A stretch of DNA of 64,000 bases from Lama guanicoe. Taxonomy: Eukaryota. Both the position numbers and the translations under genes were made by a program. Below, piece by piece: positions 12,833 through 45,893 of the stretch. The stretch covers positions 51,394 through 115,393 of the forward strand of contig MU053876.1 of the NCBI GenBank assembly GCA_013239625.1. Reading direction: 5' to 3'. Within the stretch, counting starts at the first letter, position 1. Each line of letters opens with the position of its first letter. The notes under the pieces are model-generated. The model saw only the letters and a program-made list of their open reading frames with translations. It did no database searches and was not told the DNA's origin.

Positions 12833-15831
12833 AACTTTTTCCAAACCAAGTTTCAGAACATCCAAGTGTTATTTAGGGTAAGCAGAGCATCTCAGAAAGG
12901 TTTTAAAAGTCACTAAAAGGATGGAATATTACGGGCAACAGAGAACCCTGCAAGATGGTTTTGGGGATGGTCCAGTCCAGGGGTGAAAAGACTGGGAAGG
13001 TGTCTCACTCAAGGGGAGTGACCTCTTCATCTTCATCTCTTCAGACTGGGAGGAAAGAGTTTGTCGGTTTCGAGAACTTCTTTTGAGATGTGACAAAGAA
13101 GTTCTCGAGATCCTAGGTGAGGAAACCTCTCACCAGGACCCCGCGGGGGTCACCACGTTGTCTTTGGATGTCACCACAAGGAGAGGAGACTGCCTCTCAT
13201 AGGGTTGGAGATAAGCCTGCCTTTAAAGCCCAGGGGAGGAAGAGATGGTCTGGGGTCTTCTCCAATTCATGGGATGGGAGCACACACAGCATGGAGCTGC
13301 TGTAACATTTCTCTGAAGAACAGTTAGTTAGAAAGAGGAATCAGGCAATGTTATTCTAGGAACAGACAGTGCCAGTCATGTCATGAAACGCAGGCCTAAA
13401 AAAAATCCCCTAACAGATCCAGAGTCTCTTCCAGAGACTTTCTGAGGATGCATGGCCGTGAACCTGCAATTTTGAAGACAAGCTCATCTGGCACTAAGCT
13501 CCGATTTCTTTTCCAATAAGAGAACTGGGGTAAATTCATGGGAAAATTAAATCATGGCCCCCAACCAGATTCTGGAAAAAAAAAGTCACTACTTTCCTCA
13601 CACTTGTGGGGAGAGGAAAGGGGGAGACAGCCACCCAACATTCCCCCAATTTGGTAAAACCACCTTCCGCTTTATCCGTTTGTTTTTCCAGTTATATTTT
13701 AGTAGAATAATTTGATCAGACACCCAAAGGCCTTCCCACTAATGAAAAAAGAACTTGCTAAGAAAAATCAATGTGTAAGTTGCCTTCAGATCCATCAGAG
13801 ACTAAAAGAGTTATTAAAGTCTGGAACAGAGCAACCGCCCTCTGACTCTTAGAAGGACCAGTAGGAGCGGAGCAGAGACGAGCAAAGGGTTAACACAGCT
13901 GATTTCGGGGCAAAGAGAAGGAGGCAACATCCTTTTTTGAGGCAAACACCTGGAGGGGAAAAAAGTGGTATGTTGTTTCCAGCTCCAGAAATTGCAGACA
14001 CACAGAAAGCAAATCACATCAGGGGAATATTCAGTTCCCTGCACGTGCTAATTAACGAAATGTCATCAACCCACTTCCAGGCCTCTCCTCACCTGCTGTG
14101 TACTTGCAGGGCACTGCCTGCCTGGCTCCTCACAACCGGCAGAACATCAGGCAGTCTGCACAGCACATCCCAAGGAAACAAATAAGCGCAGATTTCTGTT
14201 GATGGCAGGATTTCTCTTGCTCAGGGCAAACGAACCAACCATGTGGGTGTGGGCAGCCCTGGCTGGAGATTTTAATCATGCCCCACACCTATTTTGCGAA
14301 AGAGCCTGAAAGTTCGATTAGGTCCTATGATGCTCAGTTATTTCACAAAACTGCGGTCATTGGAAGTAGTAAATATGCAGTGATGACGGAATTAAATATT
14401 CATGAAACTGAGTGCAGCTGAAAAGCCGAGGACGTCAGGATATTAAAAACGCCTCATGGTTTTACCGTGTAAATCTTGCCCGCATCACCCAGGTCCAGTC
14501 TAGAGTGTGTTCCAATGCCAGTTCCTTGCTGGAATGCCACTGAAATTATAATATTGATTTTGGTAGATAAACGACACTGTCAGCCCCTCGCTCAGAATCA
14601 CCATGCAAAACCATTCTGAGCATTCACAAACACCAACTTGTTACGGTGAGCCTGTCTCCAAGCACAGAAAGGCCACGCTCAACATGATCCCGGCACGCTT
14701 TGGGTATTTGTTTAGTCCACTGGCACCTTGGGAGAGATTCAACAGAGAGCAGGGCACCCTCCCGGGGAGGCACTTCGCGACACACGATTCTTCCCTCACG
14801 GGGAACAGTGGCTGTCTCCCTGCACACGTCCTTCAGTGAACCAGAATGAGAAAGTATTCTGACTGCCTCTTCCTTGGTTCCAATATTCTGATTTGTTGGA
14901 CCAACTTTTCCGCAACATTCAGCAGCCAGTTTCAAAATGGATTGACAAATAACGTGTAATCCACCGGGGAGAGACAGCAGCGAGCAACGCTAGCTTCCGC
15001 GAAGCTGAACTCCGTGTATGGAAGAGAGAAAACCCTGCTCAGAGCCACAGCGGTCATCAGCAGACTCTAATAACATTATCGAGGCATTACTTTCTATGCA
15101 TTTCCTTTCCTTGACAATTTTCTCAACAGAACAAACAGCAGCCCCTGAAAATGGCATTTGAGCCATTTCCTAGTGGAATCCAATTACCCAAGGAGGGAGT
15201 TATCCACAGTGAGTAGCTGCTATCCCCTGTCCACAATGACACAGCAGGGCTGCCAGGATGTCCTGGGCTCACCTGCCGCCAGGCACTGGGTCCCTGCCCT
15301 CCCCAGAGGGAGGATGCCAGGTGGGGAGCAGGACCTCCGGCTCGGAGCCGGGAAAGGCAGCGCTCACCATTCTGCAAAAGAGCCAAACTTTGCTCCCACT
15401 GTTTCCATCTTTCGGTTGATGTCCCCTCCCTCCAAGGAGTCTCAGAAGCCACTTGGCAGCCCCTGAAGACATAGGTTTCCCCTTGACCTAGATCATCTAA
15501 ATAAGCCCTGGCGACACGGTGCGGGCAAGCGGAGGTCTCTCCATCCTGCTCTCCTGAGGTGCTGCGCGCTGCCGTGGCACCACATCGCATGGACCAGAAG
15601 ACTTTTCTCGGCACGCACAACACTGCCTTCGGAAACCGGGGCAGACTTCTGCACCCGCCTTCCCGTTCAGAAAGTCACTATCGCCCACCGCACGCCTTCC
15701 CCGCATCTGCAACCCCCACCACCACACGGACGCGAAGGGGGTGGGGGAGCGGAGGGGTTAAAGTGACAGCCACTCCTAGAGCGCCCTGGTTCCGTTCGAA
15801 AGGTGTCACAGCGCCAACGCGGTGGACCTAC

Positions 15832-16068
15832 CTTGCCCTCTCCCTTCTCGCCGTTGGGGCTCGCCTCGGGATCGTCGCTGTCCTCGGCGCCGGCACTCTC
15901 GCCGGGCAGTTCATCCGGAGCCAGCTGCGGCGGCGGCGGCGGCGGCTGGGGCTGGGGCGGCGGCTGGGGCTGGGGCGGCGGTGGCGGCGCCGGGCGGGCT
16001 CCGCCAGCCCCCTGCGAGCGGGGGATGGGCTCCGGGCGCGGAGAAACTCCCTCAACATCCATCTCCAT
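15832..16068 (-). CDS. RBMS3: Putative distal alternative first coding exon of RBMS3 (79 aa, MEMDVEGVSPRPEPIPRSQGAGGARPAPPPPPQPQPPPQPQPPPPPPQLAPDELPGESAGAEDSDDPEASPNGEKGEGK)
   Basis: ATG in strong Kozak context (AAGATGG), 237 nt open frame, consensus donor AAG|GTAGGT at 15831, inside a CpG island. Same strand as and downstream of ZCWPW2, as in the recalled ZCWPW2->RBMS3 synteny. Phase 0 fits RBMS3 exon 2 (QSYAPAP...). The gene name is inferred; no RRM exons are in the window. Confidence 0.65.
15927..15990. repeat. (GGC)n/CCG tract plus 18-bp tandem unit encoding poly-Pro/Gln
   Basis: gcggcggcggcggcggcggctggggctggggcggcggctggggctggggcggcggtggcggcg read directly. Confidence 0.9.
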
Positions 16069-19024
16069 CTTCCCATTCACTGGAGGGCAAGACAAAAGCG
16101 GAGCGCGGACTTGGCAGCGGCGCCCGGCGGCTGCTCAGCTGCCCGCGGCACGCATGGCTCGCCGAGGAGGGGCCGCCTCCCGCGCGCCCTCCCTCCCGCC
16201 ACCCTTCGCCCGCGCGCCCCGCAGCTCGGCTCACCGCTGGGCTCGGGCACCGGCGGCGCCGGGGCCGGGGAGCGCGAGCCGCGGGTGGCCGCGCGCCCTT
16301 GGAGCGGTGGCCTTCGGGCGCCCCCGGCAGTCCTGCTACGCCGAGCGCATCCCGGCGGCGGCGACGCCTCCCAGCCGCGCGCCCAGCCCCGGGGCCGCTC
16401 GGGGACTCGCTCCCCAGCCCGGCCTCCTGATCTCGGTTGCTTTCGGCGTCTCCCCTCCCCTCCAAGCTCTGAGCAAAGTTACTGGAAGAACAATCACACC
16501 CCCGAGATGCACGGGCGAAACTGACAAGAGTCGGGTAGGTCAGGTGTAAGCGATATCTACCGTCCCCGCCCGCTGACCCGGCGCCGACCCCTCACCCTTG
16601 CCCTCTCCCGACGCGGAGCTGGGAGGAAGGCAGGGCTTGCCTGGAAGGGAAGGCAACCCTGCAAGGAGGGGAGCTGGCGGAGGGCGCCCACCCCAACCCC
16701 AGCGACCCCCACCGCCACGCCGGCCCCGGGCCCCTCCCGCGCTCCCTCCCGCGGCCGCGCGGGTCCCCAGGGTCATCCCTCCCGCGCGCGCGAGAGCATC
16801 CCCGCGCTCCCGCGCCGCCGCGGCCCCGCGCCACCCCGCCGGCGCCCGAGGACCGCGGAGGCGGCGACAAATGCCAGGCAGGAAATTCACCTACCCTCGC
16901 CTAGGGCCCGGTCGCGGGCTGGCACCGGGGAGGGGTGGGGCCCGGCGCCCAGGGCGAGGAGGCGACTTGGACCGCGCGCCCGAGTTTGGCGTAAAGGTCG
17001 GCGGCGGAGGGTCGGAGCGGGAGGCGGAGGCAGAGGCGAGAGGTCGCTGCCCGGCATCCGCTCCAGGTGCCCGCGGTGGGCGCCGGCTCCCGGCCAGCTC
17101 TCCTGCGCTTGGAAGGGCGTCCTCGGGCCGGCAGGGACCCCAGACCGGGCGGTGAGCTGCGTCTGTAAATCTGGATAGATAGCGAGGACAAGGGTAGACT
17201 TGGGAATTCTTAAATCAGGTGATTAGGATGACTTCTAAATTTAGCACTACTCGGTCCCGGGGAGTAGCTCCCAACTTCAGGGAAACAGCTACGGCGACTC
17301 TGCGCGCCCGGGAGGGACCTTCCAGCCTTGGAGAGAAACAGCGGGTTATTAAGAATCTGTTTAATATTAAATAGAGCCCATTGTTCTGGGCTTTGAGTTC
17401 TGTAATGCCCCCAAATGGATCAGCCAGATAAATGAACTATTCATGCATTTCTTAGCATGGGTGGCTTTTTTCCCCTAGCATATAATGCATCACGGATAAC
17501 GCTTGCCTATGAGACTAGAAAGGTAAATTCACCTCGTGACGGCTTTGCATTAACTTAAAGACAACTTTCATATTTCCAAGCCTCACTGCCCCAATAGATG
17601 CAATTACACAAAAACACAACATTAGGTTCCCGTCCTGCAAGGCAGTCTCTTCATCTCTGCCTCTGCCTCTGTGTGTGACAGAAATTAATTGCCACTTTAA
17701 TTGAATCAGTGCAGAGAGCCAATCTGGATAATGCAATGTGAACATGCTTTTGGAAGGCAAAGTTGGGAGGCGAAATAACTCAGTCCTCTTTTTCTTCAAA
17801 ATGTCGAAAAATTAGATTGCAAGCTCATTTGCTAAATTGGGAACTTGTTACAAATAAAAGGAACTTGCTTTTAGTCTGAGATTCACTGTACTTTTTCAAT
17901 GACATTATGGCAGTTTACGTAGTAATGTACCAGCCAAGGAAATACAGAGCTTTGTGCCTTTAAAAGAAGTTACTTACTCCATTTCCTCCCTGGTACATTG
18001 TAATAAATCAATTCTTATAGTATTTTTATAATGGTAAATTAGATCATCTGTGTAAAGTGCTTAGCAGAGTGCCTTAGGGCATAGTAAGCTTTCATTGTCT
18101 GTTTTACTGAAAACAGTAGGATGACAGAAATTCACCATGAGCACTCGTCTGAGGACCTCCATTAAGGAAGAAGAGATTGCCAGTTTAATTAATCTTTTTA
18201 TATCAATTATTCCACAAGATTTTTGGTATCTTCAAAGAATGAAGCCCCTTCTGAAAGCTGGAATCAAGTCAGTGGTGTTCTGTGAAATCAAGTTTTGAAT
18301 TTGACAGATTTTCCTCTTACAGTGTAGAAATAAAAATTACATGTCAGTTCCAACAGGAGCTGGAATCACTGACTGGTAAGTTATTATTCCTCCATGCTTG
18401 TTAGTTCCAAAATGTGTTTGGGAACTTCTTTCGAGGCTTCAGTGAAGAGTAAATCAAAAATAAAGATACAATACTTCAACTAAATTTGTTCTAAATTTAA
18501 GCAAGTGCTGGTAAAGTGTCCCATTGTTAAATGCAAATATTTTTCCTTTCTCTGCCCTTCTGTTTTTGGGGGACACAGAAGATTTTTTTTTTTGCATCTG
18601 TCATAAGTAAATACGGGCTCAGAAAATATATTACATTTCAAAACTGTTGATTGCACCTAATTATGCATGTAAATTGCTACTTCAAGCGCAGAGACAGCTT
18701 GCAACATTTTGAAAATTTTGCCCTAGTACTCATCTGAGGTATTTGTTACTGTTTTTCTTTTGCCTTAAATGACTTCATTTCACCCATTAGCTTTCCATTA
18801 ATGAGGGGTCTGTGAATAATTCTGACCTTCCGATGTCTCTTTTCGATGATTCAAATTCGTAAATCAGCACTTTCGGCAAAATCACCCTTATTATGGTTTA
18901 TATCAGGCCATTTGATTTCTTGAGTCTCTGAAGTGAGAGTTCACAAAAAGGTAGCCTGGAAGAGTTATCTAACCCCTTGGTACTCAAAATGTTAGTCACT
19001 GGACAGGCAGCATCCTGACACCTG

Positions 19025-20200
19025 TATTGTCAGAAGGACGAAGTCCAGCCCCAGACTTACTCTGCATTTTAACAAGATCTCCAACTGATTCCTACCATAT
19101 TCAAGTTTGAGAAGCACTGCTCTAACGCATACCATAATTGGCCTTTCTCTATTATGATTCTTTGGCACTGACCCCATAAAAGACCACTCGGGAAGACTTA
19201 TCAGGGAAATGCAATCATAGAAACTTTTTTTTTTTTTTGGTCAAGACATTATGGTCACTTCCCATTCTCCCTGGGTTCTGAGTGTTGCATGACGAAAAAT
19301 TGCATAAATTAAGAATGTATCTATATTGTATATCTCTCATCATGAATTAGAAGTATGCAATTTCCCAAAATCAAAAGGAATTAACCAACAAGGGGAATAA
19401 CACTTTATCTTGAATAATAAATGTTACGCAAACATGTGGAACTGATTCCTAAAAGAACTTGGTTAATCTTGACCTTCTGCTGGAGATGGAAAAGTCTAGT
19501 TTCCAATCTGCTGGGAATATTGATAGGCTCTGTTACCATGCAACCGGGAACCACCGAGTTAGCATCTGTACAATGACAGTCTATTGAAGCGCCAATAATT
19601 AGGCATAAGAATGGACTAAAATATATGCCGCGGTGTTTTTAGGGACTAGCAGAACTTGATGCTTTGAAGAATTTCTAGATCAATCAATTATTACTTTTAA
19701 AGGCGATCTGGAACCGTAGTTCTCACCTGTAATATACATGAAATCACCTGGGGAATCTCCCTGGAAGGCAGATTCTGACTCTGCAGGATCGGGTTGAAAC
19801 CTGAGAATCTGCATTTCTAACCAACTTCCTGATGAGACCAGTGTTTCTGGTCCTCAGGCCCCATCGACTTGCTTTACCTCCATTGATAGTTCTCAGACTT
19901 TAATCAGTTGGGGAGCTTTTTAAAATTTTCAGTGCCCAGACTACACCCCAGACAAGTTAAGTTAGAACCTCTGGCTCTAGTGTTTAGACCCCAGGGGGTT
20001 ACAGTGTGGAGCCAAGACCGGGAATCAGCGATGTAAATCTGTGCTTCCCCAGCATTGCCTCCAAGACCAGCGACACAGCGTCACTAGGGAGAGGGTTACA
20101 ATGCTGACTCACAAGCCCACCCCAGACCCACGGGGTCAGTACCTGCACTGTAAGCTCTCCCCACGCTGTGTCTGCACATTTCAAGTTCAAGCAGCACGGC
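19025..20200. mobile_element. Cluster of MER5-like DNA transposon relics (~19030-19125, ~19710-19860, ~19885-20200)
   Basis: Recurrent motifs tctgcattttaacaag, caagtttgagaagcactg and tagttctca, typical of MER5A/B. Confidence 0.6.
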
Positions 20201-20399
20201 TGTAGCCTAGCCCCAGGGGGCAAGGAGGTGGCCCGCAACCAGAAGCAACCGACCAACCGACTGTAATTCCTTCACCTCTTGGCTCTTTACAGAGCTACAC
20301 CAGTTCTGAGAAGCTTTCACAACCCTGACCGCTAAATTTCCCATTGATAAGCGGCCTCTTCGAGCATCCCTGGCTGTTTTCATCACTGTAGTTGGCAGC

Positions 20400-21184: not shown

Positions 21185-21715
21185 AGGGAGGGGCGTGGAG
21201 GAGAGAGGTGGGGCGTGGTATAGAGGAGAAGGGCATGACATAGAGGAGAGGGGCTGCTCTGGAGAAGGGGCAGGGAGAAGAGGGGCAGGGTGTGGAGAAG
21301 AGGGGTGGGGTGTGGGTCAGGGAGGAGATGGGTGGGGTGTTGAGGGGGCGGGGCATGGAGGAGATGGGAGGGGCAGGAAGGAGAGAGGCGAGTGTGGAGG
21401 AGGTGGGTGGGGCATGGAGAGGGGCGTGGCATAGAGGAGATGGCGGGTACGGAGAACGGGTGGGGAGGAGAGGGGNNNNNNNNNNNNNNNNNNNNNNNNN
21501 NNNNNNNNNNNNNNNNNNNNNNNNNNNNNNNNNNNNNNNNNNNNNNNNNNNNNNNNNNNNNNNNNNNNNNNNNNNNNNNNNNNNNNNNNNNNNNNNNNNN
21601 NNNNNNNNNNNNNNNNNNNNNNNNNNNGGGGCGTGGAGGGGTGGGCGTGGCATAGAGGGGAGGGGCGGGTATGGATAAGGGGCAGGGGCTGGAGGAGAAG
21701 AGCGAGGGGCGGGGA
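21185..21715. repeat. G-rich degenerate minisatellite (unit ~ggggcgtggcatagaggaga) spanning an assembly gap (N 21476-21627)
   Basis: Repeated ggggc(g/a)tgg...gaggaga units on both sides of the N run. Confidence 0.85.
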
Positions 21716-24447
21716 CAAAAATCCCAGTGACTAGAAACAGGCCGCCCCCGGAGTCTCCCCCAGGGTGAGAGTAACAGCACCACCGCCCACCATCACAACA
21801 GCGCAGCCACCAACCATTAACCGGGCTCCGTGCAAGCTCCCGAATGCCCGGTCCGGCGGGTCTGGACGGGAAGAGAGATTATTCAGGGCACGTTATTTGA
21901 ACCGACACGTCTCACGTTAAAGATAAGCAAATCCCCACGGGAGAGGGAAGAGGAGAGTGCTAAACTACAGTCAGCCCTTCCCTCGACTGAGAAGGTGACT
22001 GGGCACAGCCTACCTTGTACCCGGAGGCTAACACCAGAGAAAGGTTTCCTCGAGGTCTGTGCCGCGCCCGGCTGCGCGGCTGCCGACCGGGTACCATGTG
22101 ACTCGGCTGTGCCCACGGAGAAACGTGTAGCCAAGGGCAACAGCCTCACTCGGAGGACGGTCACTTCTTAGCAACTGAAACCAGTGAACACACAGCTGTC
22201 GTCGTCCTCGGGGAAGAAACTCCAGCGGACTTCAGACCACCGGCTTCCAGGGGTTTGGCCATGAGCTCAGACCCTCATTCAGGCACCTGAAGACCTCCCC
22301 TCACCCCCGCCAGGCACTCCTTTTCTTCGGAAACTGAGGGCAAATGTCGTCACGATCCACATCAATCCAGCTCAGAAGGGAGCAGGAAGAATGACAATGA
22401 AAGAAGAAAATGTACAGTCCCCTCACTGATGGACTCAAGTTCTAAGTTCAGGGAGCTTTATGCATGTCCCCTGCCTAACAGCGCGGCTTGTTACAATGAA
22501 GTCACAGCCCCAGCCCTTGTCCTGGGCAATGCCTGCAAGATCTCCCACACTTCCCTTGTTCACACACACACACATTTCTTGGCTGAAGTTATAGGTGTAG
22601 TTTACCAATGGAAGGAGCCGCAGGGATCCTGAACTTAAATTCTGGGTCACCTGAGAATATTCCAGGAGACTGCAGTTTTGAGAGCAGTGGGCCCCGCAAG
22701 GTGGAAGCAATTCTGTCTAGGGCTTCCTGGCTTGTCCAGAATGACGGTTTGGCTGAGCTGGTCCTAGACTTGACCTGTGCCAAAATACCAGTAACAAAGG
22801 TTAAGTCAGGTGGGAGGAGGTAGCTGGTATCTGAAGACAAATGATCTTGTTTCTGAGCCTGGGATCGGACAAATCCACGCATCAGACACCCTCTCCTGGA
22901 GCCCAGAGACGAAAGGAGAGACTCCAGGAAGGCCCTGTGAACTCCCTACACGTGGAGAGCAACCTCAGAAATGGAGAAGACGTGTTAATCCTCCCAAGTG
23001 AATTCTGTTTCACTCTCAGCCCGAACCCACATCCCGTGACCCAATGCCATTCACTGCCTGGTACCCTGACGATGGGAGGAGTTCTGGGAGCCCACCCTGG
23101 ACAGCTCCACATCCCGCCTCCTGCATCACTCACGGGTCCTGGGGGGTCACCAGGCCACCATCAGCTCTGCCAGTCCCCCTCCCTCAACTGTGGAACTGAC
23201 TTACTGGGTGTGAGACGTGGTTGGTCAGAATTAACATTCCTCTTGCAAGCTCTCCAGAATGACACCCCTGCCCCGGTTCTCATTAGCATCAAGCCCGTAT
23301 TCACTGAGCAAACCAGACATTGGACGAGGTGGAAAGCTGGCAGAGGTGATGCTCTAACAAGTGCCTTTTATCTTACAAGTGCCTAATAAATATTACATTT
23401 TCGTAATTTGGCTTTTTAAACCAGAAATTATCTTTCATTCCCTCGCAGCGTATATTTCAGAAGATCCATCAAATGCCGTGCCTTGTGCATGGTGGGAACT
23501 AAATAAATGTTTGAGAATGAATATTAGAAACCTTTTAGGTGAAGGCTTAGAAATGACTTTGCATCTCATCTTGGAAAATGTAGTCCTCAAAAAAGTCAAA
23601 CAAGAATAGGCTTTTTGGAAACTGGGTTTTCACTGTGGACTTACTGTGATCATGTTTGTATCAACACCATTGAAACACTGCAGGAGGGTAAGTGTCTGAG
23701 TCTCCATTCCCTTTTTTTTTAAATGAATCGAGGAACCTGCAATTCCTTTCAGCTCAAAGACTCTGAGATAACAATAGGAGATATTTTCTGACCAGTTAGT
23801 TGCGTTCAGAAAGCATCCAATGATCAAGTGATGGGGGAACCCTCTCTAGTTTGGAATGATACTCTTTGATTTTTCATCTATTACTCACCAAATCTCTTCC
23901 ACTGTTGCTGAACCATGGCCAGTGGTCTCCCGGTCATCATGTCCTTTGTCTGTAACTTTGCTTTTCATTTTGGGTCCAGGGTATAAGCAATGTGTACAAC
24001 TACAGTAACAATTAGGCAAGACATGCCGGGGAACCAGGAAGTTAAATGTAAATACGAAATCCACAGAGATGGTGTTGCGTGCCCATCTGCGATGCCATGA
24101 CGTGCTCCAGCCCTGACATCTCTCCTGAAGCCAGCTCCACTGTAGGATCATATATTCGAATTTTCCAGAACCTGAATTCACAAAGCTCTCGGTTAAAACC
24201 AAGCCTGACTGACCTTAGTCTTCGTGATTTACATGAGCAGCACCGTTCTTCCTAATCACCGGTGCCCAGCGAGCAGCTCACCTGAGCCTGGACTCCTCCC
24301 ATTCCCAGCGCCCCCACTGTTGGTACTCAGACCTCCTCATCCTGCTCATCAAATCCTTGATTCATTCTTTCAAGAATAGGAATTGAGCATCTACTATGTA
24401 ATTGACCCTACTTTGGTTGTATTGTTAACTAGTGATGGAGATACAAT

Positions 24448-45329: not shown

Positions 45330-45893
45330 TGACTTGAACAGAAGAAAATGATTTTAAGCTTTCACAGAGGACAAATGAAAAGGATCTGCCTGTAAGCTTT
45401 CTGACAGCCAGAGACCCGCTGCCATTTAAAACTCTGCGGCTGCGATGTATTCCCAGGCAGCCCAGAGTTTAATAAGACTCGGTGGAGACACCTAACCTTC
45501 CAGTCCCAGACTGCCTGCCAGCAGCCCTAAGGCGCTCGCTCTGGAAACTGACAGTCTGAGCTAACGTCGGGGCACGGACACGCTCAGACACGGGGCACAG
45601 GGATGTCTGCCTGCTGGTCCCTGCCTCTCCCCATCCCCCATGCATGCAAAGCACAGGGTGGTCTGGCATTCCCAGACCCCTTGTGTCCATCCTGGGGGTC
45701 ACCCCCACACCTGCCTTCCCCGCCGCCCCCTGCAGTCTGGTCGCTCTGCTGGTCCTTCTTGTTCACACCTCTCGGCTGGCTCAGCCTGTGGCTCTCCTCC
45801 TCCTCTCTTCTCGCTTCCACCTCTGGCTTCACTTCACGGGACTCACTCCCCAGAGAGACCGTAAAAATGATGATTACATAATATACAACAAGC

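Follow-up and report, generated by a model that had tools for sequence, protein, structure and literature searches.

A close described system is canonical RBMS3, a member of the MSSP family (mouse NP_001165594.1). It shares exon 2 onward, with both RRMs and the C-terminal region, with the long form described here; unlike the long form, it starts at a proximal 25-codon exon outside any CpG island. A long RBMS3 isoform is already contained in the RefSeq and UniRef predicted sets. It is functionally uncharacterised and, judging from its distribution among sequences, ancient. Predicted long isoforms from chimp (XP_054537543.1) and deer (XP_070311385.1) have the same upstream coding exons, here called A, B1 and B2, in the same junction order as is predicted for the guanaco locus, and the same exons and order are found in chicken XP_015137271.1, gar XP_015212461.1 and chimp PNI73757.1 ('isoform 4, partial'). 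The guanaco exon A has a longer Pro-rich tract, with 79 residues vs 71 in chimp.

An alternative promoter that gives a new N-terminus is ordinary as a kind, and predictors already list the RBMS3 case. In the accessible parts of the RBMS3 literature (zebrafish craniofacial work and a tumour-suppressor review), either the short canonical form is meant or starts are not distinguished. The zebrafish translation-blocking Rbms3 morpholino and its rescue used the canonical start, and the long form is not addressed in the accessible text of this craniofacial study (PMC3483135). No alternative RBMS3 starts are mentioned in the available portions of PMC3777521, PMC9778424, PMC13059153, PMC11963466 and 10.1101/2024.02.05.577752. 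A search by title and start of abstract, largely outside subscription papers, found no study of a long-start RBMS3 isoform. LINC00693 was described as a lincRNA that is up in autism cortex and poorly conserved in mouse, in a paper whose main text, as far as available, does not mention RBMS3 (10.1101/077057). According to excerpts of other papers, variant 3:28705690 carries the label LINC00693 (PMC12462436), a 3p24.1 deletion lists LINC00693 before RBMS3 (PMC5800070), and RBMS3 is a low-probability nominee at a Parkinson locus (PMC10907089). In Drosophila, the Shep isoforms A, B/D, C and E have distinct N-termini, and C and E have their own promoter (PMC3510032, available text).

We analysed a window of 64,000 nucleotides, the whole stretch of guanaco DNA presented here. 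Read on the minus strand, 16068 to 15832 is a run of 79 stop-free codons. The ATG at 16068 has a strong context (A at -3, G at +4), and the codons end at a phase-0 donor, AAG/GTAGGT, after 15832, with the 5' splice site GTAGGT at 15826..15831 (minus strand). This is the best-scoring GT site within 15400-17400 by a simple weight matrix of splice-site frequencies. The predicted partner of this donor is exon B1 on another contig, followed by B2 and then RBMS3 exon 2. The strong-Kozak ATG, the 79 open codons, the phase-0 donor and the surrounding CpG island had all been claimed in the earlier note, and all were confirmed in the sequence. Exon A as a whole (248 nt; 15832..16079, minus strand) comprises an 11-nt leader and the 79 codons, and has orthologues from chimp to shark. 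Its non-repetitive part is single-copy in the genome; the other 42 matches centre on its repeat tract.

A polypyrimidine tract and AG acceptor precede exon A (16080..16110, minus strand), the acceptor at 16080/16079 lying 11 nt upstream of the ATG. In mammal, wallaby, emu and turtle models V-N-x-K stands before the Met, which matches this acceptor, and 16080 is the first position of the emu and turtle alignments. The acceptor is probably common to amniotes. Because it is conserved so close to the ATG, exon A appears often to be an internal exon, and not a first exon only, as had been proposed; first-exon use in some transcripts is compatible with this. An out-of-frame ATG at 16074..16076 (minus strand) has the weaker T at -3, and in the spliced mRNA its frame stops inside exon B2 after 119 codons. 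At its place bird and turtle models have Trp and mammals have Gly, and the ATG is probably not shared with birds and turtles.

The island extends over 15501..17500. Its 500-bp bins have a GC content of 0.56-0.75 and a CpG observed/expected ratio of 0.80-1.0, compared with 0.465 and 0.43 for the whole window. The region of the canonical first exon is island-free, with no 500-bp bin above a ratio of about 0.60. The island is likely the distal RBMS3 promoter. Within it we identified an upstream exon segment, U1 (163 nt; 16895..17057, minus strand), which opens with an ATG at 17057, ends at a phase-1 donor after 16895 and is in frame with exon A here. The ATG has a weak context (C at -3 and +4). 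U1 is 57-63% identical to the N-termini of chimp and bat models, and the frame within it is altered in reindeer and pygmy sperm whale models. On account of these shifts between species, U1 was rejected as a constrained coding extension; it is probably mostly 5' leader. A second upstream phase-1 donor, AGG/GTGAGG (16590..16596, minus strand; last exon base 16596), is matched by bat and snow leopard models with ...GEG[KR]-VNGK.

A second small CpG-rich patch (21628-22250; GC 0.59, observed/expected 0.78) lies about 5 kb upstream of the island, directly after an assembly gap (21476-21627). Four other stretches of the window (15253-15435, 13810-13944, 20135-20344 and 45499-45597) have 42-58% identity to pieces of ab initio models of other mammals, and are probably conserved non-coding DNA taken as false exons by predictors.

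The ORF length of exon A is by itself no more than chance, since 25% of the 79-codon windows on the minus strand of the island are stop-free. It is the conservation that places the ORF beyond chance, because 32 homologues exist, and distant vertebrates share both the start motif and the Lys that ends the exon at the donor. Orthologues of exon A were identified in mammals, birds, turtles, gar, sturgeons and shark. The first 16 residues form a conserved N-terminal motif (16021..16068, minus strand), which compared with chimp is identical at 16/16 positions in the window, 14/16 in pigeon, 13/16 in turtle, 10/16 in gar and 12/16 in paddlefish; over the whole of exon A the pigeon, turtle, gar and paddlefish comparison gives 25/58 to 37/60. 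The frequency of stop-free windows would suit a reading in which conservation of the island reflects a promoter or regulatory role, with an incidental ORF, as would the neighbouring U1, which is conserved in sequence yet changes frame between species. We consider this reading extremely improbable, given that from mammals to shark the start motif, the terminal Lys and a frame without stops persist although the length varies from 55 to 85 residues, and that in the two downstream exons identity over the B2 core remains at 72-96%. Exon A, as its sequence conservation argues, is protein-coding and conserved across jawed vertebrates. The +1 frame of exon A is also open, and would become the RBMS3 frame via a second AG in B2, as in one turtle model. 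Dual coding was rejected for this frame, which is open in 68% of synonymous resamplings and thus unremarkable.

A search with the 79-residue peptide returned 32 homologues (E 1.7e-24 to 2.8e-15; 7985 candidates scored). Of the 32, twelve contain RRM_1 and bear the name of an RBMS3 isoform (chimp, macaque, marmoset, bats, deer, pig, deer mouse), which supports the proposal that this distal CpG island holds a coding exon belonging to a long isoform of RBMS3. Nearly all of the supporting records are predictions (XP or Ensembl-type models), and none is curated from experiment. Exon A and RRM1 occur together in 123 of the 283 proteins that were collected. These 123 models are redundant isoforms of many species rather than independent observations; 113 have both B1 and B2, nine have B2 only, one has B1 only, and none joins exon A directly to exon 2. 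The direct junction foreseen in the earlier note is thus not seen in any of the 123, and the junction peptide proposed from it would not exist.

In this genome, exon B1 (69 nt; G000:C4572:723903-723835, minus strand) and exon B2 (174 nt; G000:C4572:504947-504774, minus strand) have AG/GT ends, are in phase 0 on both sides and lie upstream of canonical exons 1 and 2. Exons A, B1, B2 and 2 together read as 217 codons with 0 stops. Because the two phase-0 exons of 69 and 174 nt intervene, the predicted N-terminus before exon 2 has 160 residues (canonical, 25), and not the 79 that had been supposed. Nor is a Tyr-rich segment simply lost, as had been thought, since the 81 residues of B1 and B2 include 22 Ser, 6 Tyr, 3 Trp and 2 Phe. 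The isoform is older, and twice as long at its N-terminus, than was first supposed. Its full length would be about 570 residues, as reckoned from a 435-residue camelid canonical model. We assign a probability of about 0.8 to the reading in which exon A is joined to B1, B2 and RBMS3 exon 2, giving this isoform of about 570 residues, in which a probably disordered N-terminus of 160 residues replaces one of 25. That a long RBMS3 isoform exists is very likely.

Exon A also appears in several models that lack RRMs. The models from shark, Pangshura turtle, alligator, stork, elephant and bighorn end after A-B1-B2, and others end right after exon A. One assembled-contig protein, P0104, has Tyr after exon A, and not the Val that read-through of the donor would demand, which indicates that exon A is spliced to another exon; its tail recurs in marmoset, pangolin and bat models. 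It follows that exon A could reside mainly in short transcripts ending before exon 2, which would give an RRM-less protein of 80-190 residues or a lncRNA-like RNA, with read-through into RBMS3 a minor event. We regard this as unlikely. The phase-0 end of B2 fits exon 2 in 122 of the 123 models, the tails of the short models vary by species, as expected if annotation splits the gene across very long introns, and a search of this genome for the pangolin tail gave nothing at E below 0.67. Short products probably coexist with the long isoform. A short exon after exon A is common to primate, pangolin and bat records (P0104, P0101, P0019, P0015), and suggests a short non-RRM transcript from the same promoter. 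We searched this genome for this tail exon and did not find it.

Exon A was identified in none of the 15 camelid models listed from a cluster of 42. Four alpaca models place B1 and B2 behind a repeat-derived first exon, and one camelid model starts inside B2. The first exon of the alpaca models (G000:C4572:724312-724602, minus strand), some 400 bases upstream of B1, consists of an interspersed repeat present in high copy number, with at least 150 matches in the genome. It is possible that it represents a transposon-derived start or a modelling artefact. A Met internal to B2 is the start of several models, and a second AG is present 5 nt inside this exon.

The A-B1-B2-RRM layout is annotated in birds (chicken), turtles, gar, paddlefish and sterlet, and the white shark model has A-B1-B2 without RRMs. 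The core of B2 is identical to that of chimp at 44/47 positions in wallaby, 43/47 in chicken, 45/47 in turtle, 40/47 in sterlet, 39/47 in gar and 34/47 in shark. A toothfish model has diverged A and B2. By these comparisons the constrained part of the new N-terminus is the Ser/aromatic exon B2. In a search of this genome with B1 and B2, only the two exons on the RBMS3 contig were found among the 27 candidates scored, and no RBMS1 or RBMS2 counterpart was found at E<=0.001.

The Pro/Gln repeat tract of exon A (15925..15987, minus strand) is labile. In a survey of 33 hand-picked species with one record each, the longest Pro run varies from 1 to 11 and the longest Gln run likewise from 1 to 11. 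Shark and turtles have poly-Gln at this position, and birds have neither poly-Pro nor poly-Gln. Poly-proline had been proposed as a ligand for SH3, WW or EVH1 domains, and would in that reading be the functional point of exon A. The species studied here suits it: the 79 residues include 25 Pro, six of them in one run, and there is one class I SH3-type pattern. By common consensus patterns, however, the class I pattern is found in 1/33 species (the one in this window), no species has a class II, EVH1-type or PPxY pattern, and a Pro run of at least 5 occurs in 7/33. No ligand motif of the tract is common to the 33 species, and we consider the ligand role distinctly improbable.

An acidic disordered segment was also part of that claim. 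The net charge of exon A is negative in 33/33 species, and AlphaFold gave a pLDDT under 50 and no secondary structure for residues 1-190 of the deer isoform (28-row alignment). The 160-residue N-terminus is probably disordered, a low pLDDT from a 28-row alignment being a weak sign of this. Pfam has no family for the 79-residue peptide, and shark and turtle N-termini gave sub-threshold low-complexity matches only. The ESM Atlas returned no usable match for residues 1-158 of the deer isoform.

The zf-CW exon of ZCWPW2 (C1861:176563-176706, minus strand) matches the solved ZCWPW2 domain (E 3e-32) and lies about 109 kb upstream of exon A on the same contig and strand, supporting the earlier statement that ZCWPW2 precedes it. 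Exon A is on contig C1861, and the RBMS3 exons are on C4572 and C6405, minus strand. A comparison of the ends of C1861 and C4572 found no joining overlap, only short repeat-like matches; the adjacency of exon A and the RBMS3 body in this assembly is putative. The canonical first exon, of 25 codons with a phase-0 donor as previously stated, was seen in this genome with its donor at about C4572:420645 (minus strand). The acceptor of RBMS3 exon 2 (near C4572:283486, minus strand) is a tandem CAGCAG, which is why models occur with and without one Gln at the exon 2 junction.

Transcription likely starts in the CpG island. If C1861 and C4572 are neighbours, a distance of at least 525 kb would separate this start from the canonical ATG downstream, and the first intron would be at least 222 kb. 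Short upstream exons could splice into the acceptor at 16079; the sites are present, and their use is suggested by orthologous models. Ribosomes initiate by scanning, and would likely pass the weak ATGs at 17057 and 16076 to initiate mostly at 16068. According to the junctions of orthologous models, exon A would join B1 (sometimes skipped), B2 and exon 2, skipping canonical exon 1. All of these joins would be in phase 0 and without a stop, the frame being seen in this genome. The two RRMs would be unchanged, probably along with the recognition of RNA. Most likely the new tail serves as an acidic, variable spacer (exon A) bearing a conserved Ser/aromatic interaction segment (B1-B2). It is possible, at somewhat less than even odds, that the tail alters partners, localisation or entry into condensates. 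The target indicated for mutation is exon B2 rather than the poly-proline. A long form kept since the split of sharks and mammals would alter the reading of knockdowns and of promoter-methylation claims, as well as of copy-number changes and nearby risk variants.

Shep resembles RBMS3 in that a shared RRM body carries either a long or a short N-terminus, as far as the available description goes; its orthology to RBMS rests on database names and matches. In orthologues from amphioxus, acorn worm, brachiopod, ribbon worm and sea anemone, the order of basic-MSP, Trp, Pro-Arg and Tyr elements is alike by eye, in the corresponding position directly ahead of the exon-2 segment. The similarity of invertebrate N-termini to A/B1/B2 is not significant, and the architecture may be parallel. 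Eight of 55 N-termini, one a named teleost and one a probable fish, reached p<=0.05, vs 1/55 C-terminal controls (amphioxus p 0.02, acorn worm p 0.045 in the N-terminal test). A profile-profile match had a probability of 0.5% and E 0.11, and was reached by 4/200 column shuffles, with ten invertebrate profile rows that were chosen after viewing and so favour a match. We suggest, tentatively and at low odds, that the 'alternative' start is in fact the older one, that B2 preserves an RBMS/Shep N-terminal motif, kept among vertebrate paralogues only in RBMS3 from the distal promoter, and that LINC00693 is the 5' end of this form. If this were true, a lncRNA up-regulated in autism cortex would be the 5' end of a coding isoform, and a Parkinson risk variant that bears its label would lie in an RBMS3 intron. 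Human LINC00693 may start at the island syntenic to that of exon A. In the available descriptions it is listed before RBMS3 and, unlike the coding exon A, it is described as a lincRNA.
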